Source of the DNA: Psammoneis japonica
Taxonomy: Eukaryota
Reading direction: 5' to 3'
Length of the DNA: 40,707 nt
Assembly: GCA_008632985.1 (NCBI GenBank)
Contig: QPGO01000210.1
Span: forward strand, 76,365-117,071
A program made the position numbers and the translations under genes. The notes below the pieces were generated by a model. The model was given only the letters and a program-made list of their open reading frames with translations. It did no database searches and had not been told where the DNA came from. How positions within the stretch are numbered: the first letter of the stretch is position 1; every line of letters starts with the position of its first letter. Of the stretch, positions 4,621 to 35,116 are shown piece by piece.

Positions 4621-4722
4621 ATAGACGCACTTGAACACACATAACGCTGTTTTGTTTTTCCAAGACTTGACACTTACACCAACACTTCCTTGACTAACAC
4701 ACCTCTCATACGTGTGTCTTGC

Positions 4723-7700: not shown

Positions 7701-8763
7701 GTTAAAAGGCAACTCTGGCACCCGCAACTTGCGAGATAATCTGAGTGACTTGCGAGCTCAAGTCGCTGCCAATAATTCGGGTATCCGCCATTTACAAGAG
7801 CTGGTCGAGGAGTATGGTCTTGGCGTCGTTCAAGCGTACATGGGCTTTATTCAACACAACGCCGAAGGATGCGTTCGTACCATGTTGAAAGAGTTTGCAG
7901 AAAAGCATGGCTCCCGTGCTCACGCAATCGATTATATGGACGATGGAACTCCGATTGAATTGACAATTACAATCGACAAAGACACCGGCAGTGCCTTGTT
8001 TGATTTTACTGGTACAGGTCCACAAGTCTACGGCAATCACAATGCTCCACCCGCCGTGACGTACTCGGCTGTCATTTACTCGCTACGGTCTCTTGTTGCC
8101 CAAGATATTCCTCTCAATCAGGGTTGCTTGGCGCCCATTGAGTTTGTGATTCCCAAGTATTGTCTCTTGAATCCGTCGTCGGACGCCGGTGTCGTGGGAG
8201 GAAACGTATTGACAAGTCAACGCGTGGTGGACGTTGTACTCAAGGCATTCAAGGCTTGCGCTGCGAGTCAGGGCTGTATGAATAATTTGACCTTTGGCGA
8301 CAAGGAGTTTGGATACTACGAGACGATTGCCGGGGGCGCCGGAGCTGGAAGCACTTGGAATGGTCGCAGCGGAGTGCATACGCATTGTACCAATACTCGT
8401 ATTACCGATCCGGAAATTCTGGAACGTCGATATCCCGTCTTGTTGCGACAGTTTGCCTTGCGTCACGGTAGTGGAGGGAAGGGACAACACAAGGGCGGCG
8501 ACGGCGTCATTCGTGAAATCCAGCCATTACGTCCTCTCATTATGAGCATTCTCAGTGAACGTCGCGCTCTTCATCCCTATGGCCTTGACGGTGGTGAGGA
8601 CGGTGCTTGTGGAATCAACTTGCTCGTAAAGGAAAATGGTATTGTTGTCAATATGGGCGGACGGTGCAGCGGTACAATTACTGTTGGCGAACGACTTAGA
8701 ATTGTAACTCCCGGTGGTGGTGGATGGGGCAAATACGAAGCCTCAGGGGAAATGAACAGTTAG
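4723..8763 (+). CDS. OXP1: ATP-dependent 5-oxoprolinase (fused hydantoinase A/B type); intron 6615-6718; apparent +1 indel in the C-run at about 7690-7694
   Basis: Motifs [102 protein letters not shown]. The GT..AG intron joins LNMR|YEGTDN. Core protein starts at ATG 4852; in-frame ATG 4723 adds a presequence. Confidence 0.95.
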
Positions 8764-15316: not shown

Positions 15317-16541
15317 TCAGGTAGTAGAGATAATTCCTCTATTTCTATGGATATCGGTAGGGTCGCTTGCGGTAACGTCCATGTTTGTCGTGTTGCTGTT
15401 TCTTCTCGCGTTTGTTGCTGTACTCTCATTGAGAACAGAATACGAAATCCCTGCACACGGCGAAAGCACATGTGGATACCACAAGTGGTAAACAATCGTC
15501 CCGCACGTACTCCCCAACAAGCATCCCGCCAAAACATCGGCGGGATGATGCCAATGATCGGCAAGACGGGTGGCAGAAACAAAGGCGGCAAAGGACCACG
15601 GCACAAGACACGAAACGAGCGCCAACAAGCGACGGCGTGCCTCGTACTTGGTCGGCCGTGCCAATCCGACCTTGCCCAAAAAGAACCAAACCAAAAATGT
15701 CATGGCGCAAAAACTATAGATGCATATTGTACGGTGCTGTTGTGTGAGAGACAGTAGAAAAACAATTGCAAAGCCAGGACAATTAATTTCATTCCATACG
15801 TACCTCAGAGACGTATGACCCGATGGGAAACTGAGACGACTCTCTCGCAATCTCGAAAGCGGAGCTTCGCAAACAAGTTTGTCATGTTGAATCCACAGAG
15901 CTGGTAAAAGTTTGGACGCGTCCGCTGGACAAAGAGCTTCAACAGTTGCGTGCACCCCTCACTGCATCCCACCGCCGTGAAAAAGGCACAAACGCTAGCT
16001 CGCAAATCGAGTGGATTCCGGAGGCATACGCCAAAGGCAACCAGAACCGCAACAGGAGCCCAGATGCACGTATGAACCAGCATGGCCGCTGAGTGAGGAA
16101 ATACAAGCGGCGGTCAGTCACATGCTCAGATTCAGCAGCAATCAATCAAAGCCCACATTTACGACTTACAGGGTATGGCAGGATTGGGAAGGTACTCATG
16201 ATTTAACCCAAAATCCAAAATAACATCACCTGCAGCAGTCGTTTGATAGGGAATGGGTCGAGCTTGAAGCTCTTGTTCCGACGGCAACAACGCTTTGGGT
16301 CCATAGTACCCCAACAAGAAGAACAATAGCACAGTACGGGCTCTCGTAAGAATTCCATCCAATTCATGGATCGAGACATTTCAATAATTTGTAATCCCTG
16401 TTGAGATGACGAAGAATACATGAGTGGAGATGCTTCGTGTGCACCATCAAACGTAAAGGAACCGCCCCCCGTGTCCATGGACAAGTGCGTAAGAAATTTC
16501 GGACGAAAGGATTCTTCTTTTTCTGATTCTGCTTCACTCAT
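15317..16541 (-). CDS. PAP2-family lipid phosphate phosphatase; introns 16089-16169 and 15714-15803; indels present
   Basis: Three catalytic motifs KLFVQRTRP, SFPSGH and TRLADHWHHPADV, plus TM segments; canonical GT..AG introns on the minus strand. Confidence 0.9.
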
Positions 16542-16786
16542 TTTTGTTGCTTCTGAAGTTGTAATTGGTAGGATCGCTGTTGCTTTGTTCGCTAGAGTTC
16601 TTACAGAAGAGGACGATCTTTGAATCAGAGTCTTGCTGCTCTTGCTCTTTTCGAATTTCATGGTTGTGGTTCCGTGGTTAGACTACATGTTGCATGCTGA
16701 ATACCTACGTGGTGCTCTGTCCAACGTCGCCCTCAAATTTTCAAAATGGCGTAGAAACACGTACATAAATACTACAGTATTTTCCT

Positions 16787-16804
16787 TACGTAGATTCTAC
16801 GTAG
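16787..16804. promoter_or_regulatory. Palindromic GTAGAWTCTAC motif, putative promoter element (also at 10280-10290 and 31276-31286)
   Basis: Exact gtagattctac three times, each within about 250 bp upstream of a start codon; variants at 26164, 26855-26872 and 28800. Confidence 0.5.
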
Positions 16805-16899
16805 GACGAGAGCGATTCTATGGGCACAACATCGTACAGTACGAGCGATGGTGGTGTTCGCATAACATAAATTTATGATTGCTATTAATATAGAATATG

Positions 16900-17621
16900 A
16901 GTTAGCCGGGGTAGGGCTAGTTGGTCGCGCACGTTTGGGTTCGATGCAGCCGTGCAACTAGCCATACCCTGCAGGAAGAGCTAGCTGTTGGTGGCGCGCG
17001 AGCAGAAGCAACAAAGCAAAGAACACGGCGTGGGTCAAAACGTTGTAAAATGACGCAACAACAAGCAGCGAGAAGAAACCCAACTTGACCCATGAATACA
17101 GCGCATACATATTGTCCAACCACTTCAATAGTATCTCGTATTCCCAGCTTGTAGATGAGGGGACGGCGTTCGCGTTTCTCGCCATGGTGTTGTTGTGCGT
17201 TATCGTGTTGTTTGCGCGCGAAGACCACGGGATCTATTTATCCGATAATAACTCCTTTTTGGTAATAGTAGATGTTTTACTGTATTCAATCTGAAAATAT
17301 TTTGAGAAGCGCTTCGGGGCGACCCTGTTCGCACCGTTAAATAGAAATTTTTTTATCCAGATTCCAGAGTTCTTTCGGGGTGTTCTGTCAGACTTTTGAA
17401 TTGGTATATACATATATTAGAGGCCTTAGCAAAATCAATGATATGTAATAGCCTCAGAGACCAACATAAATTTATGTTCCATGTAGACCACGTAGATTGT
17501 GTACCGGCGGAAAATCCACGGCATGTCAATCACTCAGTAGTGATTCTACGTACATCCTACTTACACCTCACACACGTACACACACCTACACAGTCTAATA
17601 ACCGCGCACACGTGCGCGAGA
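16900..17621 (-). mobile_element. Short non-autonomous Helitron2-like element
   Basis: Shares both ends with the long element at 18297-26581 (about 80 bp at left, about 380 bp at right). 10-bp asymmetric inverted repeats tcgcgcacgt (16925-16934) / acgtgcgcga (17610-17619). On the minus strand it starts TC after host A, has a 5' hairpin cgcgcac-gt-gtgcgcg and a 3' hairpin tagcc...ggcta. Confidence 0.85.
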
Positions 17622-19181
17622 TAAACCAGAAATTTCAGAAGAATTACAACACGCCCAACGCCACACAACATGCACACACACAACGAACACGCCGCTAACC
17701 GATGTCAAGCATCATCAAAGACGTCGTCCGGAACTGACGACGACTGTTTCAGGAACCACTTACGAATGTCCATATAAAGCCAACTGGGAATGCTCTCACC
17801 CTTTTCATCTGAATCTGGTTTGATGAGCTGAATTGTGGAAGTGAGTTCATGCTGTCAGGAGTGGGAAAGACCCCCACTGTGGTGGCTCTTCGTCAACCCC
17901 ACTCTCATGCCGCTCGCTCTCGTGTGTCTTCAGAATAGCATGTTTATTTTTAAAAATGTCACCTCAATGGATTCACCTGGCAACTCCTGAGCAGAACTCG
18001 GCAAGGTCGATTTTGCCTCTGATGAATTCTGCAGAAGCATGCCCTGTGGATGTCCGGGATGAAATCTTCTTCAATTTGTCGCTGTTGCTAAAAGTATTTT
18101 AACATGCGCTCAACCACAGCATCATCAACAAGCATGCAAAATTCTTTTAGCAACTGACCGGCAGTTTTCAAGAACGTGGCCGCATCGGTTCTTTGCCATC
18201 GTCGTTTGTCGGCTTTTCTCGTGCTTCAGTGTGTGGGCGGGCGGGCAAAAACATGCAGTCGAACTAGTCAAGTTTCTGCGAACACCAATTTTATGAAGTT
18301 AGCCGGGGCACCGGCAGGGCTAGTTGGTCGCGCACGTTTGGGTTCGATGCAGCCGTGCAACTGGCCACACCTTGCAGGCAGAGCTGTGATGTTGATTGCA
18401 CCATGTGATTTTCGGACATGAGAAGAATGTGTTCTTTAGAATGCTTCATCTTCAGAGCAATGAATGCATCTCCTTCATCATCCGACACTTGAGCAAGGAT
18501 GTCACATCATGTCACGGAGCGGGTCACGGAGTTGCTCACCAAAGGATTTTCCCGACCCCTCCTCCCCTCCCCCACTCCCCACGGCCAGACGCAGTCTCAG
18601 TGCATCATGCACTCAGATTCATCATGTCCTGAAGATTGCAAACGACATCATCATCACCCAACCCTTTCAGATTTGAATGAAAACACAAATCGCATCAAAC
18701 ATGTAAGATTTGCCTTTGCTTGAAATGCGCCGCACGCATTTTGTCAAAACACAGCAGTGCGCAGTTGGGAGCGCAGCACCAGTGCTCACATCAGGAGCAC
18801 AGGCGCTTGCACAGCATCGCAGTGAGCAACATGCACTTTGCTGCGTGCTGGAAATGGCCGTTTCTCCCACCACCACCACAAACATCATCAACACGGAGCA
18901 CCTCCAACAATGGCCGTCGCCGCTGAAAACGAGCATTGTCGATGTTGCATTGATGCCATTGGACCTGCTGTTGTCAACACAAAAACTGATTCACAATGAA
19001 AACAAATGAGAACATTCTCTTGAGCCGAAATGTGTTTCTTCAATCTCACATTCTCAGCGAGTGAATCAAATCGCTCCACTGCATTTGACAGAATCTGTTG
19101 GTTCAATGCATTTTTTAGTTTTCTCCACTTCTTGTTCTCCTTTGATCTTTGACCGTATTTCCACAGGAAAATTTCACATCA

Positions 19182-19368
19182 TGCTGGGCGGCTCAAGTTG
19201 ACACCATTTCAAACGGGGCGGTTCAAGCAGGTGCTGCATCATGCAAGGCACGAGGCTGCTCAAGCGGATGCCAACACCTTGCTGGGCAGCTCAAGTGGAC
19301 ACCTGCACCTTGCTGGGTGACTCAAGCAGATGCCAACACCTCTCTGGGTGACTCAAGTGGGTGCCAAT
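19182..19368. repeat. 31-bp degenerate minisatellite inside the Helitron
   Basis: Units starting ctcaag at 19259, 19290, 19321 and 19352, plus two looser copies at 19182-19240. Confidence 0.85.
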
Positions 19369-19855
19369 GTTGAACATCACATGGAGTGGTCCAAGGGTGA
19401 GGAGCATTTTTCATTTTAAAATCCACAATCTGCCGCTTTTGGGAAAGTCCCGACACAAAGGGCAGACGAGGTTGCTCTCGTCTCCAACAATTACGAGCAA
19501 CTGTGCCAAGGCAGCTGACTGCAGCAGCGCCTCGGCATTTTTTTTCTGCAAGATGGCCTGCGAGAGCCAAGGTCCCCGGCGAGACTGAGAGTGGCACCTC
19601 CAAGGAAGGGGGTGCCACTCGACGTGCCATGACCCGAATCTCAGTTGGACAGGGTTCGCCTGCCCTCAAAGGTGGTGATTGGTTGTTTGCAAGGAATGCA
19701 GCAGGATGGAAGGATAAAACAGCTGGATTCAATTGATTTGCAGTGCAGAATGGTTGTCGAAAAGCTTGGATGGTCATGCGGAGTAGGACGTCTAGACGCC
19801 TCTCCTCCTGCAGACGCTTGTCCATTTTCTTGTGCTTGCACACCTTCTTACAAAG

Positions 19856-22800
19856 TCAATCTTGCACAATGCCATCAACCAATCCAATGTCTGAAAGGCT
19901 TTGGGCATGGGAAAAAGCAGTGCAGGTCAAACCATGCTCCTTCTCGTGGTTGGACAAATCGATGACAAAATGGGACTTGATGGTTTGGCCTTGAGCTTTC
20001 CAAACAGTCATCGCCCAGCAAAGCTTCAAGGGCAACACAGCATGAGCATGTTCATCACAGCCCGCATCATCTCGCTTTCGAGTGCACACAGCTGCAGTCA
20101 CAGGGTGAATTGGCACCCAACCTCGGCGACTGTCATTGTCGGGAAAAAACGATCCTCCACCGTAGTCTCTGCCGAAGTCAACCCACACAAACTTTGGAAG
20201 AGATGGAGCCAAGCCTGATTCGTCATGCACAATGTCCTTTGCTGTCTCAGTTGCTCCATTGCACAATCCCGCCGACTGAGCAACATTCATGGCAAGCATT
20301 GCTTGTGCTCCGACGCTGAGGTGCACCGAGTTCTCCAAGCCTTGAAAGGAATCGGCCGTCTTTTTCTTGCCGTCACCAGTGTTTTTAGCTTGCACCAGAG
20401 CAATGGGCTTGCCAAGCGTCTTGAGATTCTTGTTGTTGAATTCTTCCACTTCAGAATTGGTCGTGAACAGATGCGGCGTTCCANTCATTTTCAAACCCCG
20501 ACTCGCACCATTTGTAAAGACCCATGGAATGTCGTGAGCACGTGCATCGTGCCTTGACCCAGTCCGCTTCTGTACAATTTCCATCATGAAGACGCTCTGG
20601 GAAGCCACAGAACCAAACTGATTCGGGATCGTTGGGGTCGATGCGATTGTTTTTTGTCAGCTTGATGACTGTGTTGAACATTTGGCAGAGATTGCATCCG
20701 TTTCGATCATCATTGCTTGTAAACCCAGTCGCTTCCCACAAACAACGTCCTCCCACTGGTGGCAACTGTCCAGGATCACCAGCCAATGCCACAATGACTC
20801 CGCCAAATGGTTCGTTGACACCTTTGATTTCACGCAATCTCCGGTCAATGTGATGAAGCTCTCTTTGACGCAGCATCGAGAACTCATCAAGAATCAAAAG
20901 CTTGAGATTCGCAAACTTGTCTTGAGCTTCAGCGAGATTTTTGTTCGTGAGAGGACGATGACGTCCACCAGAGAGGGGTGTTCCCAGTCCTTCTTGGTGA
21001 GAGTGAACTGCAGATCTGCCAATGACCATCTCAGCCTTGCGCCATGAGAGCACAGCTGCTTGTCGGAAGTCCACGGTCCCAGAGAGTGGCAGTGACAGCA
21101 TCAACAGCAAATGATTTTCCTGTGCCTCCCATCCCAACAAGGAGAGTGCACTGTCCCTCACTCTCTCCAACAACAGCACTTGCAATTGCGTCGTGAGCCA
21201 GACGTTGTCGTTCATTGAGCGAGTCGAAAGAAACTTGACTCCTTGCAGCTCAATCGACGGGGTTGGACATGAGATGATCATGCTTTCGCTCCACTTCCTC
21301 GTCCCATCCATCATGTTCCAGATGGTCATGCTCGAGTTCTGAAAAATCATGATCCTCTGACCATTTGAGATTGCTTCCAGAAAGAGCTGATGCATCGTCC
21401 ATCTGCGCAGCATGCCCCACATCCATCCAAGAGTCTTGGCTTGCATCCGTTGAACCAGAATCCGAGTCGTCACCCATTGGCGCGTCAACGTTGGGCAAGC
21501 GCAAGCTCGATTCAATCTCGCGTTGAAGGAAACCAGGAATTTGTCGACCTTGTCACATCAGAAATGGAGCATGCTGGCTCCAAGCATGAATGATGTCGTC
21601 ATTGGATGCGTTGGCGCCACCCCAAGCAGATTCAAATGCACCACTCCATGGTTGATGCTTGATCAATGAGTGCTTGCAGTGCTTGACAAAGTCAGGACCG
21701 CCAGGAGAACTTGGGACTCGAGGTGCAAAAACAGCTGCCGTGTTGGGTTTCTGGTGGCAGCGGATTTTCTTCTTGTGCTTTCCCGACTTGCCAACATAGA
21801 ATCCAGCGGCAAATTCTTGAAGAGTGAGGTCTCTAAGTCCTGGCTCAAAGGCTGCAAAAACTGAATGATCGGCCCAGGCTTCTTGGTTGAGGTGTGCAGC
21901 GCATGCATCAACGACCGTCGGCATTGCAGCAGAATCCACTCCTGCATCGGCGCCAACGTCTCCATCAGAAGGATTGTCCGACTCCTCCAGGTCAACTTGC
22001 CCAGTGGCATTTTCGAGATTGACAGTTACAAAGGTGTGGGAGCAAGAGACAAGAGGCAAACTTAAAATGAGATGGCACGTCTCCTGTTTGGAAACCATTC
22101 ACTCGCCTGTTTGGGGCAACCATTTTGATTCATTCAAAGAATGAACAACACACTGTGAGCAGAAATGCAAAGTCACACAAGGATCAAATCAAAACCAGAC
22201 GTGCCCAAAAGCTTGGCCATTGCACTCTTCAACACTGCCTGTGCACTGCATCCATCATCGATTTTCTGCTCCACTGTTTTGTGAACCATCGCGGTCATTC
22301 GCATGGACGGCATGCTGGATTCAGACTTGGAGACGCACTTGGTCATGTGCTCAATGACCTCACCGGCATCTGCAACAAGTCGGAAATCAATGTTTGCTCT
22401 CCAAACCTCGAATGTTGGGACGCAATGACTGTTGATCCACTTGTCGTTGCGTGCCAATGCCATCTCCATTCTTGAGACTTTTTGGGTCTCTCCAGCTTTG
22501 TTCTTGACAAGCTTCTCCACAACAACCAGACGAGAAATTCTTGAAAGCTGCAAAGGACATCCAAAGCGACAGTCCAAAATGTGTTCATCTGCTTTTGCCT
22601 TGTCGCACTTGGACTTGTTGCGGTCACAGCAGCCGCCGGGCTTGCACACATGCCATTCCACCACGTCACATAGATTGCAGCAGTTGCCAGTGCGGTCATC
22701 TCTCGTCATCTCTGGCACATCTTGAGGCCTGTCATTGCTTGGGTGCACTCCATCCACCCCGGGACAAAACTTGGTGGACTCTAGCCGCTCGTCGGATGCA

Positions 22801-24860
22801 GCATCTTCTGGAGGGCTGGGGTGAAACGCAGAGATGAGAAAATCATTGAAGGCAACAACCACGTCTTGTGCCTCCTTTCCATCTCTGACAGCTTGTGGCA
22901 TCTGTTCAAAAGAAAGCTCCTCGTCATCTTTGCATTCAAACTCCTCTTCATGTGCATCCAGTTCACGATCCTCCTTGGCAAAATCGTCATCCTCATCCAG
23001 CAGACCTTGTTGGCGGAGTTTCAAAGCAGCCAATCTTCCTTCCAAAACAACCTGTGACAGGTCTGTCAGCCCCGGGTCAGCCTCTGGTCGCAAACATCCA
23101 TGAACATGAGCGGCACCGCGGGCTTGGTGTTCGATCCGAAACCAAGTCCAGCTTGTTTTCATCCCATTCTTTCCAAAGAAGCTCTTCATCATCAAATTGA
23201 CCCGTTCTTGAAAGAAGGCGTCAACAATGTGAGGGTTGTCTTGGACAGCCTTGCAACGACAGGCGGCTTTCTCTTCTTCTGAAAACTCTTCACAGTTGCA
23301 GTTGCAAACCAACAAGGCGTGAAGGTCCGCCCAGTGGTTGTCGGCGGCTGAAAAAGCAAACCACAATGCAGGCATTCCGCACTGGTCTGTCAGAGCCTCG
23401 AGCTCCTTCTTCTTCTTGTAGAAATGCGAATCGCTGCCTGGGATGTTCGCGTTGAACTTTTGAATGTTGGAAACAAGTTCTTTGAAGCGCGGCCCGTTCT
23501 CTTGCACTGTGTGCTTCAGCTCTTCCTCGGTGAGCTGTGCGTCTTCTGGGCACTTTCGCAGGCACACTTTCTTTTGATCCTGGTGACGATGCCGAGTGGC
23601 AGCATTCTCGGCCCAATGCATCCACCGATTGTGGCGTGCAAACGGATGCACCCACTCTCCCTCCTTGTCATCAAAACAGGCATGCTGCAGCAAGTGCTTG
23701 TTCGCCTCCGCCATGGTGACATTGATGCGGCGATCGTCATGCGTGACATCCCCGTCGCCGCACGGGAAGAGAGCAGGAAAGGCCAGGCTTTGAAGCCGAG
23801 GAAAGGTGCAGTCATTGATGGGCTGGCCATTGTTTTCAATCTCTTGGACGACGGAAGTAGGATCAAATCGATCACGGAGAGTGCCAGAAATTTCGGCGCA
23901 CTGCTGACCTGGATGAGGGCCAGATGGTGGATGCCCAGACGCGACATCCTCGCCCTCCTGTCCACTTGCCCCGCCTTGTTCTGGACCACTTGCAGCAGCG
24001 TCTTGGTCTTCACTTGCATCGCCTGCTGGCTCACTCTCATCTGAAATGGAAGACACAGAACCCGCAACTGATCCGTCCTGCAGAAGCAACAAAAGATTGT
24101 CCAGGTTGATGTCGATGTCACAACAGCCTGGATGATTTTCCTTCAGCCAGACAAGCCATTCTGTGACATTGTCGTGGCAAACCTGAAAGTCTTTGCATCC
24201 ATTTGGTGTCCTTTGGTTTGGCTTTCGAAGGACAAAAACTGGAAAGTCGGAAACCTTGAGTGGAAGGCTCGCAATGACTTCACTCACATCCTTTTCAAGA
24301 TTCACGACGGATCCTTTGCACCCGACTTGCCCGGACTGAAGGCGACAGCACTTCATGACAGTGTGAGTGCGAGCAATGAGCATCTCTTCAACCTCAGATG
24401 GCTCGGGCAGGTGTGCAGGACGTCCCTTGGCGTAGATGTCCATGTCGTTTGCTGCAGAGAAACGACTCAAGCCATGCTCCTTGACATCCTTGGAACAAGC
24501 AAGGCACTGCCGCGGGTCGGACTTGTTCATGTTCATGTTGAACCAGCGCTTCTTGCAAGTGGCACACCGTGTCATTTCTGTCTTTGAAATTCCGTCCACA
24601 AATTCATCTTGACAAGCTTTCATCTGTGGACCAGTCAAACAAGAGTGAGAACCATTGAAGAGGAAAGTGACGACAATCAACATCATGTCTCTTACATCGG
24701 GGTGGTCTTCTAGATTGACACCTGGATGCCAGCCATCCCTGCAAGCTTCAAAACATTCATCAAGAGAAGAGGGTGGAACTGGAGGGTTGTCAGAAGAGGA
24801 TGAAGCAGATGACGACGAGGAGGAGGAAGATGACGAGGATGAGGAAGGGTCGTCGTCCAT
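19856..24860 (-). pseudogene. Helitron Rep (HUH endonuclease)-PIF1-like helicase, inactivated; probable intron 22107-22204
   Basis: Rep motifs: FPALFPCG, PALWFAFSAAD, RIEHQARGAAHVHG (HUH), CRFGCP, WRANIDFR, EHMTKCVSKSE (YxxKY position). Helicase motifs: GMGGTGKS near 21110-21145, LILDEFSM, PFGG..LAGDPGQLPPV, GLCNG, WAMTVWKAQGQT. In-frame stops and frameshifts present. Confidence 0.95.
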
Positions 24861-25244
24861 CGATTGCCTTTTTCATCTGTTTGCTTGTTTTGTTGCTTGG
24901 CGGTTTTGTGGTCTTGCTTCTGCCATTGACACCCCTTTGAAAAATCTGGCTTCTGCATTTGATTGGCGTTGTTGAGCCCTTGCCGTTTCTTGCCATTCTT
25001 GAGTCGACAGGTGTTCTCGTGCTCGTGCTTGAGATTGCTCCTTCCTTCCACTCGCAACTCTGTGATTGTTGGTGGAGGAATCAATGGCAGCCTGCAGATC
25101 TGGATGAGCAAGAACAGATAAAGTAGAACCGTGAGTAAAAAAATTCGACAAAGTAGAACCAACAAAATGGAAACACTTGCGACTCGAAGTGCGCTGTCGT
25201 TTCGCATCTCTGTCAGAAGAATCATCAACAGCGCCGGTCACTCA

Positions 25245-26102
25245 TCAAGTTCTGTGATGAAACTCAGGATCAGTGATGTTTGAAACCTCCGAATCTTGCG
25301 TTGACGAAATCTCAATGTGATCGACTGGAAGAGAAAACTCGGGATGTTTGGCGCGACTCTGGAAAGTGTCCTCTCGGCTGCGCTTCCTGACGTCTTTTAC
25401 GGCTCGATCCTCCGCTCGGCGTTCAGCACGTCTCTTTCGGCTTCGTTCTCTTCTGCGCTGTGCAGAGGTTGAAAATGAATCGGGGGTTCCAAATGCTGCA
25501 TCCTGCGATCCATGAGAATGGTGCGCATGCGGCGATCCAAAACATGCATGTGGCGGCATGTGATGGGGAGCAGGAGGTGGACGAAAGCAAGCAGCCGACA
25601 TCCAATGATTACAGGGAGGAGACAAAAAAGCTTGAGCCGGAGCACACTGGCATCCAAGATTGGGCACACCCGGCGGCATCATGAAAGCATCGCAGGGGCG
25701 AGAGTTCCTCACATCGAGAGAGCCATGAACGACAGGAGGAGAAAAAGCAACACCATTTCGAATGCACTCGTTCCACTCATCAATCAAAGAAGCTTGAGAT
25801 TTGGCGGAATGGGTCGATGCGGGCGATGCAGGTTCTGGAGCTTCCGGTGGAACGTCGGGTCCGGCGGAAAAGAATGCCTTCTCAACAAGCTCTTGCTCCT
25901 TTGGATCCGTTGTCGCTTGTCCCACCAGACGACGAGTGGGCATGGGAAAGGAAGCAAAAGAAAAGAGGAGGATGAGTGTAGATGCAAGAGGTGCAATCTT
26001 CATCGTGTCGAAAGCGATGTCGAGACGAGACGATGAGTTTTGTGTTTGGCGGGATTTTGTTTTCCACGGGAAAAGTGAGTGGCGAGACCTCGTTTCAATC
26101 AA
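25245..26102 (-). pseudogene. Accessory ORF (or upstream exon) of the Helitron, function unknown
   Basis: 285-aa open frame upstream of and co-oriented with Rep-helicase; basic cluster QRRRERSRKRRAERR; Pro/His/Cys-rich segment. Long ORFs arise easily in TpA-free DNA, so support is limited. Confidence 0.4.
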
Positions 26103-26671
26103 GAGCTCGCAGGCGCGGAAGTTAGGTGCGACTATTCGTGGTTGAATATTTATTGAAATTGACGTAGAATCCTACTGAAATCAAGTTGAATTCTATTTTA
26201 CCGATAGTGACTCTGTTTTGGTAATAGTAGATGTTTTACTATATAAAAACTGTAGATATTTTGAGAAGCGCTTCGGGGAAACTCTGTTCGGACCGTTAAA
26301 TAGAAATTTTTTTTATTCAGATTCCAGAGTTCTTTCGGGGTGTTCTGTAAGATTTTTGAAATGGTATATGTATATATTAGAGACATAAGCAAATTCAATG
26401 ATATGTAATAGCCTCAGAGACCGACATAAATTTATCTTCCATGTAGACCGCGTAGATTGTGTACCGGCCGAAAATCCACCGCCTGTCAACTCATCAGTAG
26501 TAATTCTACGTATATTCTACATACACCTCACACACGTACACACACCTACACAGTCTAATAACCGCGCACACGTGCGCGAGATTAATTTTTTCAATTCTAT
26601 ATAAAGTTGATTATGGAACGGTTTCTACGGGATGTTGTGCCCATAGATTCCCACGAGCTCGAAATAATGTA

Positions 26672-26992
26672 CCGTGATTATCATAGAAAATCTGTGCCAC
26701 AGATTTTGGTTCAACATTAGTACAGATTTTCAAGTATTCCGGAGAAATAGATACAGATTCTCAAAAAGTATAGATTTTCACTGATGATTCTGCTAAAACT
26801 TGATTTGGGTTTTCTCAGATTTGAAGAACCCCCTCCCCAGTTAGGCCTGGCGCGTTCTACGTAGATCCTACGTACATTTGTACTGGGGTACAGATTCCAG
26901 ATTTCCGTTCAGAATAGGTACAGATTTTCTAAAGCCCTGAAAAAATAGGTACAGATTCTGATTTTGGCACAGATTTTCTATGATAATCACGG
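26672..26992. mobile_element. MITE with perfect 28-bp terminal inverted repeats, probably Tc1/mariner-type
   Basis: ccgtgattatcatagaaaatctgtgcca (26672-26699) and its exact reverse complement (26965-26992); flanked by TA on the left and CA on the right; internal repeated tacagatt motifs. Confidence 0.9.
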
Positions 26993-27598
26993 CACCGGTA
27001 TTTAGTAACCCGGATCGTTACACTGTTGTCACTTGTAACATTTCAATGAGCAGAACTTTTTAGAGCTATGAATGTAGTAACGTGATACTGGTAGATACAA
27101 AAGGTGAAATCTGACTTGGACTCGTTTTGGACAAAACGGCGCCTCTCGTCAAGAGATATTCTTTCTTGAGCACCAATCGCCTTGACTTTTGACGATGAAG
27201 CTAACGGTATTTTCGCGGAGGAAGACAGGAATGATGAGACGATCGCGTTGCGAAAATGGGCGAGTTCGCGTGCCGCTTGGCTTTGTCAGAATAAACCAGG
27301 TCCGTGCCCTGTAGGGCCCCACTTTTCTGTTTGGAGGTGTCGAAAGAGGATAATAGAGAGGCGAACAATTACGGCATAGTGCGTGTGGCGTTTCAACCAA
27401 AAGACTAACTCTCTCGAGACAATACAAGATAGACACCGATAGGAATTATGAACCATAATTTGAGATTCTCCGGCGGGAGACAGCGTCTAAATTTTCAACC
27501 AAAGGACTAGCTCTCAAAGTAGATACAAAGAGAAATTATAAACATTATGAATTATGAGTATACGTACCTTGCTTACCTTACCTATTTCTTCACTTCCC

Positions 27599-28675
27599 TC
27601 ACCAGTTGACAAGTTGTTCCATCGAGACAACCGTGATTCTTCCAAACATCGAGTCGACTCGCTGCTCAACCGACTTGATAAGAAACTTTGTGCCTGGCCG
27701 AAACAATACTTCACATTCATGCTGATTCTTTTTGAGTGCCAGTGCTTTTACGTCCAAGCCCGTCTTGCTTTCAATCTCGAAGAGAGTATTGCGGCCGCCT
27801 TCACCGGTGATAAAGCTCTTGCACTTTTCCTTCTTGCGAGATGAACTCAGAAAGGCTAGGTCGCAGAAGGTACCACCAGGCTTCAACAAATCGTATAAAT
27901 CTTGCGATAATTCGGTACCACGATACACAACACCATTGAAGGAGTTTAGCTTTGGAGAATATTGGAGGGCGTGATCCACGTCGCTGGCTCGTGACTTCAA
28001 CATTTCGGGATTAACCACCGTTTGTTGACCACGAAGCAACTTGTTAATCTCCGAGTACCCCGAGCCTGTGTAATCCTGGATCGCAAGCTTATCCGCTTTG
28101 TCTTGCTGGCGCTTCTTCTTTGTATGCAGTCTCTTGATATCTTTGTAAACCTTCTTCATCAAGTTGGCTCGTGACTCGACGCGTCTCTTCTTTTCTCGTA
28201 CGAAGTCTTGAACGGCTCGGCACAACTGCATTCTTTCAGCAATCTTGCAACGGCATTCCAACAGAATCATGATCCATCTGAGAGGGAAAGTGGGACGACA
28301 TGGTACGATCTGCGTAGAAGAGAACGAAGGAGAAACAGAATCGGTGAGTGGTAAAGTAAGAGGGACATTGCAAGAATCAGCGACGGCCCGCTGTGCCACT
28401 ACAAGAGAAGAACTCAAGCCGGGCGAGAGTGTAGTAGTCAGCGAACGTCTCATTCCGAGTCCCACGGGGACCGTCATGATGGTGGGTAACTGAACAAACG
28501 CCAAATGTTGCCCACCAGCGATCGATGCAAAAGGACGCTGCTGCCGAGTCACGAAAACCGCAGCAGCAAGCACAGTTCTTTGTTGTGGGTCATGAACTGC
28601 AATACCCATCACGCCAGAACGAAGCTGGGTGCAAAAGCGAGAGCGCATGTATCGAGTTGATAGCATAAAAAGCAT
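27599..28675 (-). CDS. Mono-ADP-ribosyltransferase of the R-S-E (VIP2/C3/ARTC-like) class with a long N-terminal extension
   Basis: AIQDYTGSGYSEINKLLRG helix, VYRG (catalytic R), AFLSSS (STS motif), LFEI, ECEVLFRPGTKF (ExE); uninterrupted 358-aa frame. Confidence 0.88.
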   Translation of the reverse strand: MLFMLSTRYMRSRFCTQLRSGVMGIAVHDPQQRTVLAAAVFVTRQQRPFASIAGGQHLAFVQLPTIMTVPVGLGMRRSLTTTLSPGLSSSLVVAQRAVADSCNVPLTLPLTDSVSPSFSSTQIVPCRPTFPLRWIMILLECRCKIAERMQLCRAVQDFVREKKRRVESRANLMKKVYKDIKRLHTKKKRQQDKADKLAIQDYTGSGYSEINKLLRGQQTVVNPEMLKSRASDVDHALQYSPKLNSFNGVVYRGTELSQDLYDLLKPGGTFCDLAFLSSSRKKEKCKSFITGEGGRNTLFEIESKTGLDVKALALKKNQHECEVLFRPGTKFLIKSVEQRVDSMFGRITVVSMEQLVNW

Positions 28676-30195
28676 AACTGCAATAGCAAGGGGTACAACC
28701 GTAACTCTACAACGAGCAAGAGGATTGTGAGAGCTTCAGCAGCAGAACTGATTTTGCCGATTTGCTTCGATGGTCTGTGGTGGGATTGCTTGTGGTACTG
28801 ATTCTACGTATTTCTACGCAGTGATTTTTGAAACTGCAGGTTTGCCCTCCATTTACCCTCGCCGAAAGTCTCGCCAAAAGTGGGTTGCTTGAGGTAGGTT
28901 CGATCAGAATTTTGTCGTGAAATGAGGTTCGTTTGAAAAAAGTTCATTGGAAACTGCTACTTGCGAATGTGTGGGTTTCGGGCGTCACCCAGACGTAGAA
29001 GCGAGTTGACCGCCAGATGGATGCTTGACGACACCATTCTATGATGGCATTGTAGCAAGCGATTAGACTAGCTGTTGAGTCACATGGAGCCGTCCGAGAT
29101 TTGCTCAAGCAAGAATATAGGCTCATTGAGTTTTGTGTCTCTATAGAGTGCAATCTAGCTTCTAAAAAAATGCTGGGGCTAGAGTATAGAAGCAACGTAA
29201 CAACATTATTGGTCGAGACCCGTTTTCATTTCCAACAAAGCATGACATTGCGTGTACTTTTTTGGTTCCCCATCATTCTTTCTATCTGCGCATTCTATTC
29301 TTCTTCTTGTACCTTTGCCATGGATATCCCTCTCGTGCCTGTACAGTGCAACTGGTCGCCTGACATGATTGAGTCGATCCTTTCTTGAGACGTCAGTTCA
29401 TTCCACTCAAAAGTGCAGGGGTGCCAGTCAAAGAAAGGTGACCATTCTACATGCGAACTAAGAGGTACAAATGCCAATACTCTACTTTACAGTCCAGTCG
29501 AAAGCAAAATCTTCAAAAATTATTTTACGTAGACTTTTCTGCAAGCGACGGCTTCCAATCAAGCCCAACCGTGTTCGTCTTTTCAAATGCAATACAGTAC
29601 CGTCCATATTGCTTACGATGCAGTGGCAGTGGCAGCGTGAGCGTGAGCGGGTTGACCAACAATGCCGTCATAGTTACGAATGTACTACGACCCAAGATGC
29701 TCTGCAACCATGTAGGATTTTCGAGATGGATTCTCGCCCATGTTCTCGAGTAGCTGATCGTAATAATGCAGCTGGTGTAGCAACACCAACGCGGAGCAAG
29801 ACGAACTGGCAGGCACCGAAGAGCGTGCATACTCCTTGAAGGCATTCGCGTCACTGGCTAGAGATTCCTCGCTGAGATCTGCCTTGATCTCTCCGAAAAG
29901 GGTTCGCGCCAGCCATTCGGCTTGTAAACCTGAGTTTGTACAGTTGAAAATGAAGCTATGAAGTGGTTACCGAATATCCAAAAAAACATGAAGCATTGCG
30001 GCAAAACAATGAAAGATTGGATGCTTCGTTTTCAATTTTATTGGCCGTACCATATGAAAATCTTGTGCTTAGGGCTCGAAAGCGACCATTTCGAATATGC
30101 GGTTGCACAAGGTGGGGAACGGTTGCTTTTGCGTCGCGCAAAACCTTCGCTCAGCCGAAGTAGCGAGAAGACAATATGCTTCCGGGTAAAGTCTG

Positions 30196-31144
30196 CTATG
30201 CATCGACACGAGGTACCAAAGTGTCAAGAATCCAATTCAGCTTTGAAGTTACCTCGTCCATTGTCCTCCTCAGACGCCATTTAGCACGGTCCAAATCTAT
30301 GTGGTAAAAGGTACCGTTGGCATCGACCATGACTTGAAAGTCATGTATTAAATTAGCAATTTCAGCGACCTTGTCTTTCAATCTTTGCTGTTCCTCTTCT
30401 CGTATTGGATTAGTAATCAAGGGGCGAAATGTTTTCAAACTATGAATGGTAAGCTTGAAGTTGTTGCGCCAAGATCCAAGCTGCCACAAGCATGTTTGGA
30501 ACTGGGGATCCGTCTCATCTTTTGTATAATCACGATGGGGTTATCTCTGAAAAGTGTCACCTGGGGTTCGCCGGCAGCTTCTCTAGGGAGTGGTAGACAT
30601 AGTCATTCAGCACGACGAGCTGTTCTTTGGTAAGGTTAACCTTGTATGGGAATTCCATTCCCAACTTTTCAATCCCATAGTCTGCGTACAACACCTCTTC
30701 GAGGCGATGTGCCCCTTCCATGGCAGAATGGAATTTTCCCATTGCTACTAGATATCCCATTGATTGGTTGGTGGTCGAATCATAATAGCATTTATGGTCT
30801 CCACAGTTGCTTCGGCTGGTGCTCCAATACATGTCCGACCACGGATAAATCTCGCCCATGACTTCTTGTACGGTTTTGATATCGGCTTGAAGCTTTGTTT
30901 TTCAATAACTTGGCTTGTGATTTGACCGGGTCCTCTGTAGTAGTTGTCTGATTAGTATTCCCGATCCCCGTGGCTTGTCTGCCATGATTACAAAGCTCGC
31001 AATGGCCATATTCCTTGCAGACTCGTACTGTAGTAGTCATTCATGTCCTTCATGCGCAAGAAGGTGTACCGTACAGGACATTGAGAAGAAGAGCCACACC
31101 AATGATAGACAGAGCGAAGCAGCTATTCGAGAGGCCACCTTCAT
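30196..31144 (-). CDS. Membrane-anchored protein with a possible minimal atypical kinase-like domain; frameshifted in this assembly
   Basis: N-terminal hydrophobic anchor MKVASRIAASLCLSLVWLFF; consecutive ORF pieces 30792-31040, 30557-30859 and 30196-30489; C-terminal IHDFQVMVDANGTFYHIDLDR with two Asp spaced like kinase catalytic and Mg-binding loops. Confidence 0.55.
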
Positions 31145-31413
31145 CTTTGGCTTGCTATGTCTTCTTAATCGCTCGCTCGGAGACGGTGAAGTCAATGAAG
31201 CGCTTGACAGATCAATCACGAAAAAGTGGTCGTCGAGCAACTCCGTTGATTCAGGTTTGCCCGATGTCTCTCTGTGTAGATTCTACGTAAATGTCATACT
31301 ACTCTGAATCTTGCAGGGAACATGACTTTTGACATTTCTTCCAAATCACAATTTGCCGCGCAAACAGCATGAGATGACAACTCACAGAGCAAATTCGCAA
31401 TCACAATAGAACC

Positions 31414-33431
31414 ATGGGCTTCCTTTACGAGAGTGAGAAAGACAATGACGCTAAAAGTAGGCAACGTGTAAACCAGCGCTTTGTACGGCTCATGGTGTTG
31501 ATTGGTATTTGCATATTTGGAGTTGGTTTGGTCGTACATCAAGACTCGTCGTCGGCGGCGCTGAAAGGAGTCTCTTTACGAACCGTCGTGTCGTTTTCTT
31601 CAGGATCCAGTAAAGACGCTATCGAGAAACTCTTGTATCGTGCAGAAACTGGCGAGAAGCGAAGCTGTCACTCAACTCAAGATTGACTATGGAGAAGAAT
31701 ATTTCAACAAGCTGTTCGTCACGGAAAGCGGTGAATCGATTGGCAAGACAATCTTTACGTCTCCCAAACATGATCCCAAAGATCCCGAGTATGATATTGA
31801 AGACGATGATTCTCGCTTTCGTTTCGTTCAAGGCCTCATGAAAAAAATTGTGCAGGCACAATTGAAGCAAGAACCGCGTTTTGTTTGGGCCACGGGCGGT
31901 CATTCGGCTGCTGCAGGACACGGGAATTTCCATAATGAGTCTTTCACGGCCTTTATGGAACGTACCTCCAAGAATATGTTTGCTGCAGTAGGCATTGATA
32001 TGGAGGCGCGTAACTATGCCATGGGAGGAATGAGATCTGCACCAGAATTGGCGCTATGCAATGAAGCCGTGTATGGAAATGATGCCGATGTTTTAACATG
32101 GGATTTTAGCATGACAGAAGGTAATAATTATTGGGCAACCATGCTCTATGGTCACCGTGCCGGTATTCATCGGAATCGTCCTGCTTTGTTCGAGTTTGAT
32201 GCAACTCAACCCAAATTCAAGCATCGACTTGAAAATTTGGCCACTTTGGAAGGCATGGGAATGGCGACATTTGCATACCGCTTCGAAGATGCTTTATATG
32301 AAAAGTTGCCGGACATGCAAATTATAGTTGAGCCAGAGGAGATCGATGCAATTCCAGAATTTGTGCGGCACTTTAAATGTGGAGAGCAGCTAGAGACTGG
32401 AGATCCGTCGTGCGCCGAGCACAAGTATACGCCGGTCGACTATAAAATTAAGGGACGAGTGAGCTGGCATCCTGGGTGGTGAGTATATCGTTATCTTTTG
32501 CTGATTGTTGTTAGCTTGATTGACAGTCAAATAAGATACAGTGAAGGTGTCATCTAAGCATTTTTCGGTCCTCTTCCCCTCTCTGGCTCATATCAGGAAA
32601 TTCCAAGCTTTGAAGGGAAACATGATTGCTCTGTTTTTGATGGACGCATTAGAGGAAGCTTTGATAGAATTGATCGACATGTACAATGATAATCCAGACA
32701 TTTCGCCGCTACATATGCTGGAAGTGCTACAGGAACAGCAGGACCTGGACTACGAGAAGTTTCAGATCTTGGGAAAAGATAAATTGCTGGACTCGCCAAG
32801 GATACTGGAGGAAAAACCGGAAGAATACAATGTCTTGTTGCGCAATCGCGCCTTGTGCCACACAGGACTACTGCCATCAAAATCTCGTTATTTGGGCATC
32901 TCGTCCAACACACCCGGCGCCTTTTATGAGGGTTCCAGCGCATGGGATGAACCACCGCCACCTACCAATGGTGAAAGTGAATGGCGTCTCGTTTTCGATC
33001 CGAACGAGCACCACATGTATTCGGGACTGACTAATCGTACGGTGCTGATTGATTACAAAGATTGGTACCAAATTGATACGGCCAATGGTGCCTCATCCCT
33101 TGTATTACCCAACCAGGCTGAGTTGGATGCGTACCTAGAAAAAGAACCTTTGAAACAAGCTTCCTTGATTGTAATGTGTCTTGCAACTTGTCCCTGGGGC
33201 AAGTGTGCCAAAGGCACCATGGGTATGGAAGATATCAACGATGGCAACGTGACGATATCTGTCAATGATCAGCGCGTATCTAAGGTGGAAGATTTGGGAA
33301 AGTGCTTGGTCTTTCAGAACGAAAACGAGAAGTACGAATGGCAGCCCAACAGCAACGGCCAGTACAAGGTGACGGTGCAAGTTCATCCCGCAGAATCCTT
33401 TCTCAAAGTGTCATCCGTTATCATACTATAA
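31414..33431 (+). CDS. Type II membrane protein with SGNH-hydrolase-like domain; intron 32479-32596; indel near 31640
   Basis: N-terminal TM helix; GGHSAAAGHGN (block I-like), RNYAMGG, DADVLTWDFSMTE, SWHPGW|K across a GT..AG intron. Confidence 0.7.
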
Positions 33432-34020
33432 ACCGACCACAAATGTAATAGTCACTAGCACTATATCTACTAGGAAAGGGTTGCAATGCAGATAAATCAC
33501 GCAACCAACACTTAGTAGCTGTTGTGCGCGTGTGGTCCGCAGTCTCTAGGCACAACTTACTCCTCGTACTACCATACCCTATTTGATGAGCATGGACCTT
33601 TAGTCTACTATAACAGGTCACCCGTTTCTGAATCATTCCCTTTTTAGGGAAGGAAGAATCAAAGATTTGCCAAGGGTAACTCGCTGTCGATAGAAATGCA
33701 CTTATACCGCCTGTCATGCTGCCAGGCAAACGTCACCATTGCACTGGATGAAATAACAACCATTCTAGAGGAATCCTTGGCGGCCAAACCAAAGTCATAC
33801 CTGACTCTTTAACTGCGCGAGTTCCCTCATGACCGTACCGTGGCTAGCACTTGGCTTTTTGAATGAGCAATCGCAACTACATAATACAGAAAGCTCAGTC
33901 TCTAAACGAGTAAGGCAACAAGACGGCCCAATTGCCTATACCCAATTATTTTCTCATTCCGTCCATCTTCGCTATATGCCTCTGTCAATTCTAAACAAAA
34001 ATAGAATACTACCTACTGCC

Positions 34021-34521
34021 CTAAGAAAGCCCCATGAGAATGAGCAACACGAGAAGAATAGACAATCCAGCAATAATCAAGTAGAGCCTCCATACAGACT
34101 GATTGGCCTTGACTTGAGCCGCTCTCCTCGTTTCTCCTTCCAATCCAGCTTGAGCTAAATCGACATTTTGCTCGACATCTCCGAGTAAGCCCACGTGCAT
34201 TCTGGCTTCGTCTGAAATCATGACGGTTTGATCCTTGAGCCTTCCCACCCCGATTGCCAATTCATCAATCATATCGTCTTGTTGCTTCATGGCGTTCTGA
34301 ACCGCCGAGGCCTTTGGCTGTTGCAAGTGCTGAATCAATCGACGTCGACGAGAAATCTCCGGAGCGGAGAGCGGCAACGAATTCAATTCATGATCGAGTC
34401 GGCCAAGTCCCATCTGAAGGGCTTGTTGCGACTGAGCGTCCGAACGCATACCCTGAGTACGCATCTGACTTGCCACACGGGCCAAGCGAGCGTATTCATT
34501 GTCCCAATCAGCAACAGACAT
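34021..34521 (-). CDS. Qc-SNARE (syntaxin-8/SYP5-like)
   Basis: EISRRRRLI helix, SNARE heptads MKQQDDMIDELAIGVGRLKDQTVMISDEARMHVGLLGDVEQNVD, and C-terminal TM anchor. Confidence 0.88.
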   Translation of the reverse strand: MSVADWDNEYARLARVASQMRTQGMRSDAQSQQALQMGLGRLDHELNSLPLSAPEISRRRRLIQHLQQPKASAVQNAMKQQDDMIDELAIGVGRLKDQTVMISDEARMHVGLLGDVEQNVDLAQAGLEGETRRAAQVKANQSVWRLYLIIAGLSILLVLLILMGLS

Positions 34522-35116
34522 GGCGGTAATGTTTAAGTAACAACTTGAAACTGTAGCAGACTGTAGCGACCGGGTGTCTGCTGCGTTGCTTTGTTGCTTT
34601 GCTGTGTTTCTTTCCCGGGTGGTGCGCTCGTGTTGTTGTCTGTGTTGTTTGTTGTCTGGCTGTGTTGTGTTGATTTGCGCGAATCGAAAAAGCTCGCGAA
34701 GAACTCTTGCCGCATAGTCTACGCATGCCATCATGAAGGTTGCATTACTGCGAAATACCTGACAATTGTCATAATGAAAAGTGGCAAATTTCTTTTACAT
34801 TTTTTTTCAGTCAACCTCAACCAAAGTTCAAAACAAAAGTTGCGCGCTTCGGTTCGCTCTCGCACACTTGTGCGTGTGGCTGGTGCTCTGACTTCTCATG
34901 TTGTTGGCAGCACAGCTCAAATGATTGCTTCCATCAAACGAGCAATGGTCATCATTGCAACGAGGACATCAACATGGAAGCTGCGGCACAGCAGACTGCA
35001 CGACGTGCAGTGCAGAATGACCCTGCGGATCAAAGGGCGGCTGCCCGCATTGCCGTTGGGGCTCACAGGGAGCTCTGAGTGACACGTGCACGGCTCCCCG
35101 ACCCACCACGTGGTGG

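Follow-up and report, generated by a model that had tools for sequence, protein, structure and literature searches.

Probable footprint of a TpA-directed A-to-G mutator in mobile elements of the diatom Psammoneis japonica

Heritable hypermutation as a defence against transposons is known essentially as cytosine chemistry, in the form of repeat-induced point mutation (RIP), decay of 5-methylcytosine (5mC) and APOBEC. On the adenine side, the first counterpart appeared in a 2026 preprint on a single chlorarachniophyte, Bigelowiella natans, whose available text gives the following account (Mettrop et al., bioRxiv 10.64898/2026.01.13.699255). Mutation-accumulation lines yielded 302 nuclear point mutations, of which 231 lay in integrated sequence of nucleocytoplasmic large DNA virus (NCLDV) and virophage; 230 of these 231 were A-to-G or T-to-C changes, every one at TpA, and the rate in the viral inserts was about 6e-7 per site per generation. 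De novo TpA mutations are reported for the NCLDV insert although it is silent. The B. natans genome also holds 324 TpA-poor coding sequences (CDS), in which DDE, reverse transcriptase (RT) and endonuclease-RT domains are over-represented. In addition, there are 124 clusters of windows that are poor in TpA and rich in CpA plus TpG. As the enzyme, the authors suggest a deaminase resembling ADAT2, with a homologue of ADAT2 as the candidate; the text of the preprint makes no mention of diatoms, N6-methyladenine (6mA) or flanking context, and its supplements may hold context data (bioRxiv 10.64898/2026.01.13.699255). Here we analyze a stretch of 40,707 nucleotides from the diatom Psammoneis japonica (contig QPGO01000210.1, positions 76,365 to 117,071, assembly GCA_008632985.1), hereafter the window, in which three blocks designated TE1, TE2 and TE3 are almost free of TpA, TE2 being a dead transposon of the Helitron class.

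The window resembles the B. natans system in several respects. In both, as far as the preprint text describes the latter, TpA is converted to TpG or CpA on both strands, the conversion is limited to foreign or mobile DNA, and a TpA-poor footprint is left (1-kb clusters rich in CpA plus TpG and a TpA frequency of about 0.002 in CDS of B. natans, and 56/18361 = 0.003 in the blocks of the window). Unlike the chlorarachniophyte, which belongs to Rhizaria, the host here is a diatom (Stramenopila). The targets are a Helitron and other repeats instead of NCLDV and virophage inserts, and the window shows a saturated historical footprint only, unlike the new mutations observed in B. natans. Three features go beyond what the text on B. 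natans describes, namely CpG decay in the same blocks, a high-copy repeat that is spared, and a preference for TAY over TAR (Y, pyrimidine; R, purine). The window represents a second lineage with a process of the kind first described in B. natans in 2026, and the initial annotation of this DNA, which knew of no described eukaryotic system of this kind, has been overtaken by that precedent (bioRxiv 10.64898/2026.01.13.699255). No account of a hypermutation specific to TpA in diatom transposons came up in full-text literature searches. A paper on SPLASH (PMC9258296), which matched diatom and hypermutation, deals with an unrelated topic.

We conclude that the blocks very probably record the long-standing activity of an A-to-G DNA mutator that was targeted at particular mobile elements and confined to them. 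The process is DNA-level, works on both strands, makes A:T-to-G:C changes specifically at TpA, and is fast relative to background decay. Very probably, the three blocks are dead diatom mobile elements that were rewritten by a host process from TpA to TpG or CpA on either strand. The diatom footprint indicates that such a process is not peculiar to one species or to giant-virus inserts and that it reaches classical transposons. The phenomenon is now placed in an ecologically dominant group with genetic tools, so that the enzyme becomes findable.

TpA loss and its direction

The edges of the blocks were set by the positions of TA, and observed/expected ratios (o/e) of dinucleotides were calculated in 1-kb windows and as block totals, with the remainder of the window as host baseline (Table 1). 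In the 1-kb windows, TpA o/e was 0.00-0.16 over 1-4000, 18001-26000 and 35001-40707 and 0.42-0.89 elsewhere, except for intermediate values of 0.27 (4001-5000) and 0.39 (34001-35000) in windows that span an edge. The initial annotation had noticed by eye that TpA is nearly absent from three blocks and normal in their neighbours, which agrees with the totals (o/e 0.03-0.07 in the blocks against 0.63-0.68 in the host DNA). Its extents for the first and third blocks (1-4620 and 34800-40707) agree closely with those found here, and its estimate of some two dozen TpA in 19000-24800 is exactly 24; on the other hand, the start of TE2, which it placed at about 17700, lies at 18293-18298, since 16902-18292 is occupied by another, TpA-normal repeat (repeat R). 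In total, 56 TA are present, compared with about 762 expected at the host o/e (206, 310 and 246 for TE1, TE2 and TE3, respectively), and the longest run without TA extends over 2483 bp (34796-37279). The density of TA switches over tens of bases at 26123, from which it is normal again, and at 34796. The latter edge sits in a bin where the depth of contigs climbs, and the left edge of TE2 is the Helitron terminus. The depletion is near-saturated, its edges match element ends, and it is confined to mobile elements, with host DNA unaffected.

Table 1. Coordinates, composition and supporting evidence of the blocks, elements and genes of the window
Feature	Position	Strand	Composition or evidence
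Block TE1	1-4620 (4620 bp)		TA n=11, TA o/e 0.03, CA 1.82, TG 1.63, CpG 0.33
Block TE2	18293-26122 (7830 bp)		TA n=35, TA o/e 0.07, CA 1.51, TG 1.43, CpG 0.71
Block TE3	34797-40707 (5911 bp)		TA n=10, TA o/e 0.03, CA 1.76, TG 1.74, CpG 0.44
Host DNA	remainder of window		TA o/e 0.63-0.68, CA 1.12-1.17, TG 1.14-1.17, CpG 0.97-1.05
Dead autonomous Helitron, nearly TpA-free (TE2)	18298-26122	-	Pfam domains, TA counts
Rep (HUH nuclease) open reading frame (ORF), 895 aa, 2 Tyr	22173-24860	-	Pfam Helitron_like_N E 2e-24, DUF6570 E 3e-21
PIF1-type helicase part, split over two frames	19856-21515	-	PIF1 E 5e-11 (20451-21515); Pif1_2B_dom E 3e-6 (19856-20608)
Helitron 3' terminus with GC-rich palindrome	18298-18385	-	direct reading of sequence
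Tyr-loss motif GCKG	24312-24323
Tyr-loss motif FPCG	23757-23768
Tyr-loss motif EHQARG	23115-23132
Tyr-loss motif CRFGCP	22554-22571
Tyr-loss motif LTCTAFS	19910-19930		helicase motif VI
Repeat R, high-copy, non-coding	16902-18292	-	contig depth; shares 3' end of TE2
A', second copy of a 392-bp part of repeat R (17233-17622)	26192-26582		90% identity; TpA normal
TpA-free remnant, probable retroelement, cut by window start (TE1)	1-4620	+	weak RNase H evidence
RNase H-like ORF of reverse-transcriptase polyprotein (weak)	2080-2742	+	Pfam RT_RNaseH_2 E 4e-4, 20.7 bits
Multi-copy TpA-free repeat, class not assigned, cut by window end (TE3)	34797-40707		TA counts, contig depth
Host 5-oxoprolinase gene, three frames; TpA-normal control	4690-8763	+	Pfam Hydantoinase_A, Hydantoinase_B, E 1e-52 to 7e-127

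The loss is specific to TpA, because o/e in the blocks is 0.71-0.95 for AT and 1.21-1.36 for AA/TT, neither of which is near the 0.03-0.07 of TA. The counts of CA and TG are nearly equal in every block (510/481 in TE1, 748/690 in TE2 and 663/629 in TE3; binomial p 0.37, 0.13 and 0.36), so both strands are hit alike, as had been argued in the initial annotation from the occurrence of both outcomes on one strand. Compared with the host baseline, the summed deficit of TA and CG (375, 432 and 447 in TE1, TE2 and TE3) is roughly offset by the excess of CA and TG (330, 316 and 445). Thus two symmetric YpR steps, TpA and CpG, are both drained into CpA/TpG in the blocks. Of the stop codons, few TAA and TAG are left in TE1, TE3 and the stretch 19322-26171 (6+2, 9+18 and 2+6 in the three blocks, compared with 106-182 for TGA), and for this reason many long overlapping ORFs lie on both strands of the dead elements.

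These figures bear on error-prone repair, a possibility raised in the initial annotation, in which a Pol-eta-like polymerase patching silenced DNA would insert G opposite T at TA hotspots. Pol eta makes A:T-to-G:C errors at WA motifs (W, A or T) in immunoglobulin hypermutation, and this is its merit as a candidate. WA includes AA, yet AA/TT is not depleted in the blocks, where its o/e equals or exceeds the host range of 1.11-1.20. Together with the near-absolute specificity for TA and the lack of transversion enrichment among the changed conserved columns of the Rep protein described below, this makes the explanation highly improbable, and Pol eta errors at WA were rejected.

CpG was also low in all three TpA-depleted blocks (o/e 0.33, 0.71 and 0.44 in TE1, TE2 and TE3, compared with 1.02 in the host DNA). 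From the block counts, ln(expected/observed) was 2.2-3.2 for TA and 0.36-1.1 for CG, so the loss of TpA is more complete than that of CpG. CpG decay is a second signature in the same blocks and is unable to account for the loss of TpA. As in the deamination of 5mC in methylated transposons, a symmetric YpR step decays to TpG/CpA in silenced elements only; unlike it, the process removes TpA, which 5mC decay cannot do because it acts on C, and its loss is the more complete one here. The pattern also resembles RIP of Neurospora and other Pezizomycotina, which likewise is a transition hypermutation of mobile or duplicated DNA and leaves dead elements with skewed dinucleotides and fairly sharp borders. 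However, RIP changes C to T mainly at CpA and creates TpA, whereas the blocks lose TpA and gain CpA. The process thus runs opposite to RIP and is separate from CpG decay, as initially proposed, and RIP was rejected as an explanation. Within TE1, CpG o/e is 0.08-0.11 at 1-3000 and 0.68-0.77 at 3001-5000, with TpA o/e steady at 0.02-0.04; this jump suggests either two nested elements that differ in age or methylation, or uneven methylation in one element.

The clearest target is TE2. Its domain order on the minus strand is that expected of a Helitron, with Rep/HUH plus a PIF1-type helicase, and the Rep ORF with its 2 Tyr and all five peptide motifs that the initial annotation had quoted were located (Table 1). 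A Helitron 3' end has CTRR after a hairpin, and insertion takes place between A and T. In TE2, the reverse complement of 18298-18315 ends ...CCCCGGCTAA, which adjoins the GC palindrome, and the word is shared with repeat R at 16902. The coding region is broken into at least five ORFs. The catalytic Tyr motif of Rep reads HMTKCVSK (22326-22349), compared with YMTKYVTK in the homologue P0125; having lost the catalytic tyrosines of HUH, this copy is dead. The depth of contigs over TE2 is 211-1347, so this Helitron has several copies. A single N is present at 20484, in the helicase region, and may stem from assembly ambiguity or from masking.

To read the direction of change, we aligned the Rep ORF with six homologues (33-41% identical) and selected the columns in which three or more homologues are present and no fewer than half of these have Tyr (n=20). 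The window has Cys in 9 of these columns, His in 4, Phe in 3, Arg in 2, Leu in 1, Gly in 1 and Tyr in none, and the share of Tyr is 0.2% in its Rep ORF compared with 3.2% in the homologues. Cys or His, the residues pointed out in the initial annotation, thus occupy 13 of the 20 columns. In the strongly conserved columns, the window agrees with the homologues at 150 of 191. The 41 changed columns include Y>C (5), Y>H (3), T>A (4) and L>P (2), which are reachable by TA-to-TG/CA change, and R>C, R>Q and R>W (one each), which are reachable by CpG decay. Since the purge of TA is complete and the general decay modest, selection for a TA-free working element is ruled out. The Rep homologues are only 33-41% identical, and no nucleotide-level ancestor is inferable from other genomes.

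Comparison among copies points in the same direction. We compared the window with the contigs of one public sample over 16501-36500, where 40 of 2043 difference rows were listed and their contexts read by eye. About 27 of the listed rows are in the TE blocks; in 7 of them the window has CA/TG where all contigs there have TA, and about 13 show CG in the contigs opposite CA/TG in the window. Between the Helitron 3' terminus and its paralogue in repeat R, three of the five mismatches are TA in repeat R and CA/TG in the Helitron. At metagenomic loci with relatives of the window Rep, TA o/e was 0.33-1.0 in the matched gene in 19 of 19 cases; because all 19 relatives have ordinary TpA, TpA poverty is not a trait of the family. 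Two marine metagenome Helitron relatives, L017 (2193 bp) and L011 (7506 bp), had CpG o/e of 0.30 and 0.63, CA/TG of 1.35-1.42 and TA of about 0.5. They show CpG decay alone, so that CpG decay and the TpA purge can occur separately.

It should be mentioned that many viruses and genes show a mild shortage of UpA and CpG, so element families might avoid TA by selection or composition, for example because of a TA-cutting nuclease, UA-directed RNA decay or TA-targeting insertions. We give this explanation practically no credence and rejected selection against TA. Family-conserved and catalytic tyrosines were replaced, which destroyed function; TA is ordinary in all the metagenomic relatives; TA is normal in the copy of the 3' terminus that repeat R carries; and an o/e of 0.03 is far past known avoidance.

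Flanking context and the spared repeat

The 56 surviving TA were normalized to the host NTAN spectrum and grouped by the number of strands on which the A lies in 5'-TAY-3'. Survival was 0.23 with neither strand in TAY (24 survivors to 104 host sites), 0.064 with one (30 to 470) and 0.006 with both (2 to 321); it dropped with the number of TAY strands (chi-square p 1.5e-12). The process shows a 3'-neighbour preference of TAY over TAR, and TAG and TAA survive best. In the Rep alignment, a purine precedes the codon at 4 of 4 Tyr-to-His sites, which reflect an edit of the antisense strand, and Cys is found at 4 of 4 Tyr sites with the antisense context TAG. By eye, the TAY context was present at 6 of the 7 contig-supported TA-to-CA/TG sites and at 2 of the 3 paralogue sites.

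The context is equally odd if the chemistry is on the thymine side, that is, if the T of TpA is modified (e.g. by JBP/TET-type oxidation to 5-hydroxymethyluracil or a derivative) or miscopied, giving T-to-C; on the T-bearing strand it reads as R before TA. Because T-to-C and A-to-G on the opposite strand look identical in sequence, the symmetry of CA and TG fits both. We regard a thymine-side origin as quite unlikely, and the B. natans authors favour adenine deamination, which they put forward as a proposal (bioRxiv 10.64898/2026.01.13.699255).

Repeat R, which lies directly beside the Helitron, is spared. Its composition is normal (TA o/e 0.84, CpG o/e 1.18). The depth of contigs is 3396-4139 at 16501-17834, in the bins of repeat R, compared with about 51-77 in single-copy DNA, so this repeat is present in tens of copies or more. 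It matches the Helitron over 73 bp with 93% identity (16910-16982 to 18313-18385), and both start with the same TTAGCCGGGG word. Repeat R holds no ORF assigned to a family. Judged from these sequence features, it is probably a non-autonomous Helitron, and it probably also shares a 5' segment with TE2. Rfam and tRNA scans of the window gave no match, and a recognizable tRNA-derived short interspersed element was ruled out for repeat R on this basis. Comparison of A' with 17233-17622 gave 36 substitutions, many of them transversions, of which only about five were TA to or from CA/TG (read from the printed contexts). Contigs link 18292 straight to 26581, which is the empty-site form; repeat R sequence is found on both flanks of the Helitron.

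RIP needs duplication, and unlike under RIP, a repeat in tens of copies is spared here, so neither copy number nor homology is by itself enough to set the process off. The initial annotation had proposed a DNA-level A-to-G mutator aimed at repeats. The TA-to-CA/TG change in mobile elements bears this out, and the sparing of repeat R does not allow extension to repeats generally. Since all three depleted blocks are low in CpG and repeat R is normal, this co-location, and only this, suggests a mutator that is guided by the silencing mark to which cytosine methylation also responds. Alternatively, repeat R may be spared by being too young.

The same observations fit a decay of modified adenine, in which a TpA-specific methyltransferase would put 6mA on both strands of silenced elements, a palindromic counterpart to the methylation of CpG, and the 6mA would be deaminated or miscopied to G, much as 5mC turns into T. 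TpA is self-complementary and its strands are hit equally, TpA depletion shares its blocks and edges with CpG decay, and the spared repeat R has normal CpG. The 3'-neighbour preference fits a methyltransferase as easily as a deaminase and does not discriminate between them. Nevertheless, we consider 6mA decay unlikely. To our knowledge, eukaryotic 6mA systems mark ApT in active genes and not TpA in transposons, and we do not know of 6mA as strongly mutagenic.

The proposed process and the points against it

In the preferred reading, a host process would convert the A of TpA by an A:T-to-G:C transition, on either strand, in particular silenced elements, and ordinary 5mC-type decay of CpG to TpG/CpA would run in parallel in the same blocks. 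In the chemistry that we favour, an enzyme of the TadA/ADAT2 type or another nucleic-acid deaminase would turn adenine into hypoxanthine; the initial annotation had likewise named a TadA-like deaminase, besides modified adenine and Pol eta. Such a deaminase would prefer 5'-T-A-Y-3' and, to judge from co-location only, may be recruited to, or allowed in, chromatin that is CpG-methylated. The outcome would be permanent inactivation, in which Tyr codons become His or Cys and the tyrosine-dependent nucleases are killed. TAA and TAG stops would vanish at the same time, so that long ORFs would persist in dead elements. This is a trap for annotation, because TpA-free elements that keep long ORFs look intact to gene callers though dead.

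No RNA intermediate is needed, because the clearest target is a Helitron, a DNA transposon; the initial annotation had made the same point. This matters for a route in which sense/antisense double-stranded RNA (dsRNA) is edited from A to I at UA and returned to DNA by reverse transcription or RNA-templated repair. Such dsRNA would account for changes on both strands and for edges that match transcripts, and a probable retroelement (TE1) is among the targets. The blocks also share clustered, repeat-aimed A-to-G changes with the hyper-editing of repeat dsRNA by ADAR in animals, which usually prefers U 5' of the edited A, according to the Discussion of the preprint (bioRxiv 10.64898/2026.01.13.699255). 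However, ADAR acts on RNA only, and its edits are heritable only via retrocopies, whereas the best-defined target is without RNA or cDNA stage. The non-coding 3' terminus of the Helitron was also hit, and near-complete conversion would demand many rounds. A-to-G change on a single strand, as expected of ADAR, was not found, since CA and TG are symmetric in the blocks. We know of no ADARs in diatoms. We therefore see very little chance that RNA editing was written back, and ADAR retro-editing was rejected.

The natural substrate of TadA/ADAT2-ADAT3, A34, follows the universal U33, i.e. it lies in a UA step, which makes these enzymes attractive candidates. We know of no chromatin-targeted action on double-stranded DNA in this family. 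Its product inosine reads as G, and some members are reported to be DNA editors; ADAT2 of amphioxus has been reported to deaminate DNA (PMC10354150). A more specific proposal, which we offer tentatively, is that diatoms have a dedicated chromatin-targeted adenine editor of DNA that acts at 5'-TAY-3' on either strand of silenced mobile elements, the same as the Bigelowiella system, either as an old defence of SAR or as a repeatedly acquired one. Should this tentative proposal be correct, the system might be the adenine-side mirror of 5mC decay and RIP and a natural A-to-G DNA deaminase acting in a double-strand context. If true, an enzyme from nature that converts A to G in chromosomal DNA would be of interest to base editing. 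Testable handles are offered by the TAY context, by CpG decay as a companion of TpA loss and by the short high-copy relative R, which is spared.

Several points weigh against a targeted host mutator. The sharp edges fit targeting in situ and, equally well, copies that had been mutated beforehand and were then transposed in trans. Taken together, changes from window to contigs are about as frequent in one direction as in the other (A>G 401, T>C 365, C>T 357, G>A 348), and with 40 of 2043 rows listed the other copies cannot be called less mutated. The best run holds 0.39 of the sampled words of 17000-26900, and at several listed rows every contig disagrees with the window letter. Assembly error in repeats is possible to some degree, and the contig runs may be the assembly's own source, hence not independent of it. 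The preference for TAY was scored against the host NTAN spectrum and not the ancestral spectrum of the elements, and the survivors may include newly created TA. Fungal Tad2/Tad3 favour UAG in the mRNA editing reported for them, unlike the preference seen here, where TAG and TAA survive best (PMC11087585).

Base-level reliability was assessed with the same contigs. Over single-copy parts of the window their depth is about 51-77 and each piece differs from it at 0-2 places, and a 508-bp contig (depth 51) covers TA-free 35011-35518 with four differences. The TA-free sequence is therefore present in the contig data and is no long-read artefact at 35011-35518. In 35661-35695, there are five differences in 35 bp from the only contigs there (depth 64, near single-copy), four of which restore CpG and one TpA; these could come from a second allele, from a closely related paralogue or from faulty local assembly. 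Such rows, at which all contigs contradict the window, and the word share of the best run would agree with an artefact in which modified transposon DNA was miscalled (TA and CG as TG/CA) in a long-read assembly whose repeats were left uncorrected. We hold this to be barely credible. Were TA real at 35011-35518, tens of differences would be expected in the 508-bp contig; the word share exceeds the approximately 0.21 that non-TE flanks alone could supply; and strand-wise miscalls of a palindromic step should create CG too, yet CG is depleted. Moreover, the signature in B. natans was obtained with Illumina reads, as stated in the preprint text (bioRxiv 10.64898/2026.01.13.699255).

TE1, TE3 and the neighbouring genes

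Self-comparison of the window revealed no similarity among the three blocks and no pair of long terminal repeats (LTR). The initial annotation had named an LTR retroelement, a Helitron and a DDE transposon as targets, of which the Helitron was borne out by Pfam, the retroelement found weak support, and the DDE transposon had none from Pfam, the atlas or the representatives. TE1 is a probable retroelement, to go by its RNase H-like ORF. The RT_RNaseH_2 match, at 20.7 bits, is under the Pfam cut-off of 29.8, and an ESM Atlas look-up of the ORF at 2080-2742 gave RT RNase H clusters in 28 of 30 matches (score 0.93). The read-through frames of TE1 contained no Pfam family at E<=0.01.

Contig depth near TE3 is 71 (33843-34509), 366 (34510-35176) and 146-223 beyond. 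No transposase of the DDE/RNase-H fold was found in TE3, and its six read-through frames (with X at stops) contained no Pfam family at E<=0.01. Likewise, no relevant Pfam family was found among the 21 ORFs of TE3 (of 41 ORFs scanned), the best ESM Atlas score for TE3 was only 0.77, and phmmer against 1.84 billion representatives yielded three weak matches, each of 5-6 short stretches of the query.

The host 5-oxoprolinase gene, which follows TE1, has TA o/e of 0.53-0.72. Among the 120 matches listed, those with an organism name were all from diatoms (Mayamaea, Fistulifera, Nitzschia, Cylindrotheca, Thalassiosira and others) with 74-84% identity, and the best match lacking an organism name had 86% identity; the gene thus marks the host as a diatom. 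Between the blocks, an ORF of 358 aa on the minus strand (27599-28675) matched the ADP-ribosyltransferase families ADPrib_exo_Tox (E 2e-12) and ART (E 2.5e-6), and its TpA is normal.

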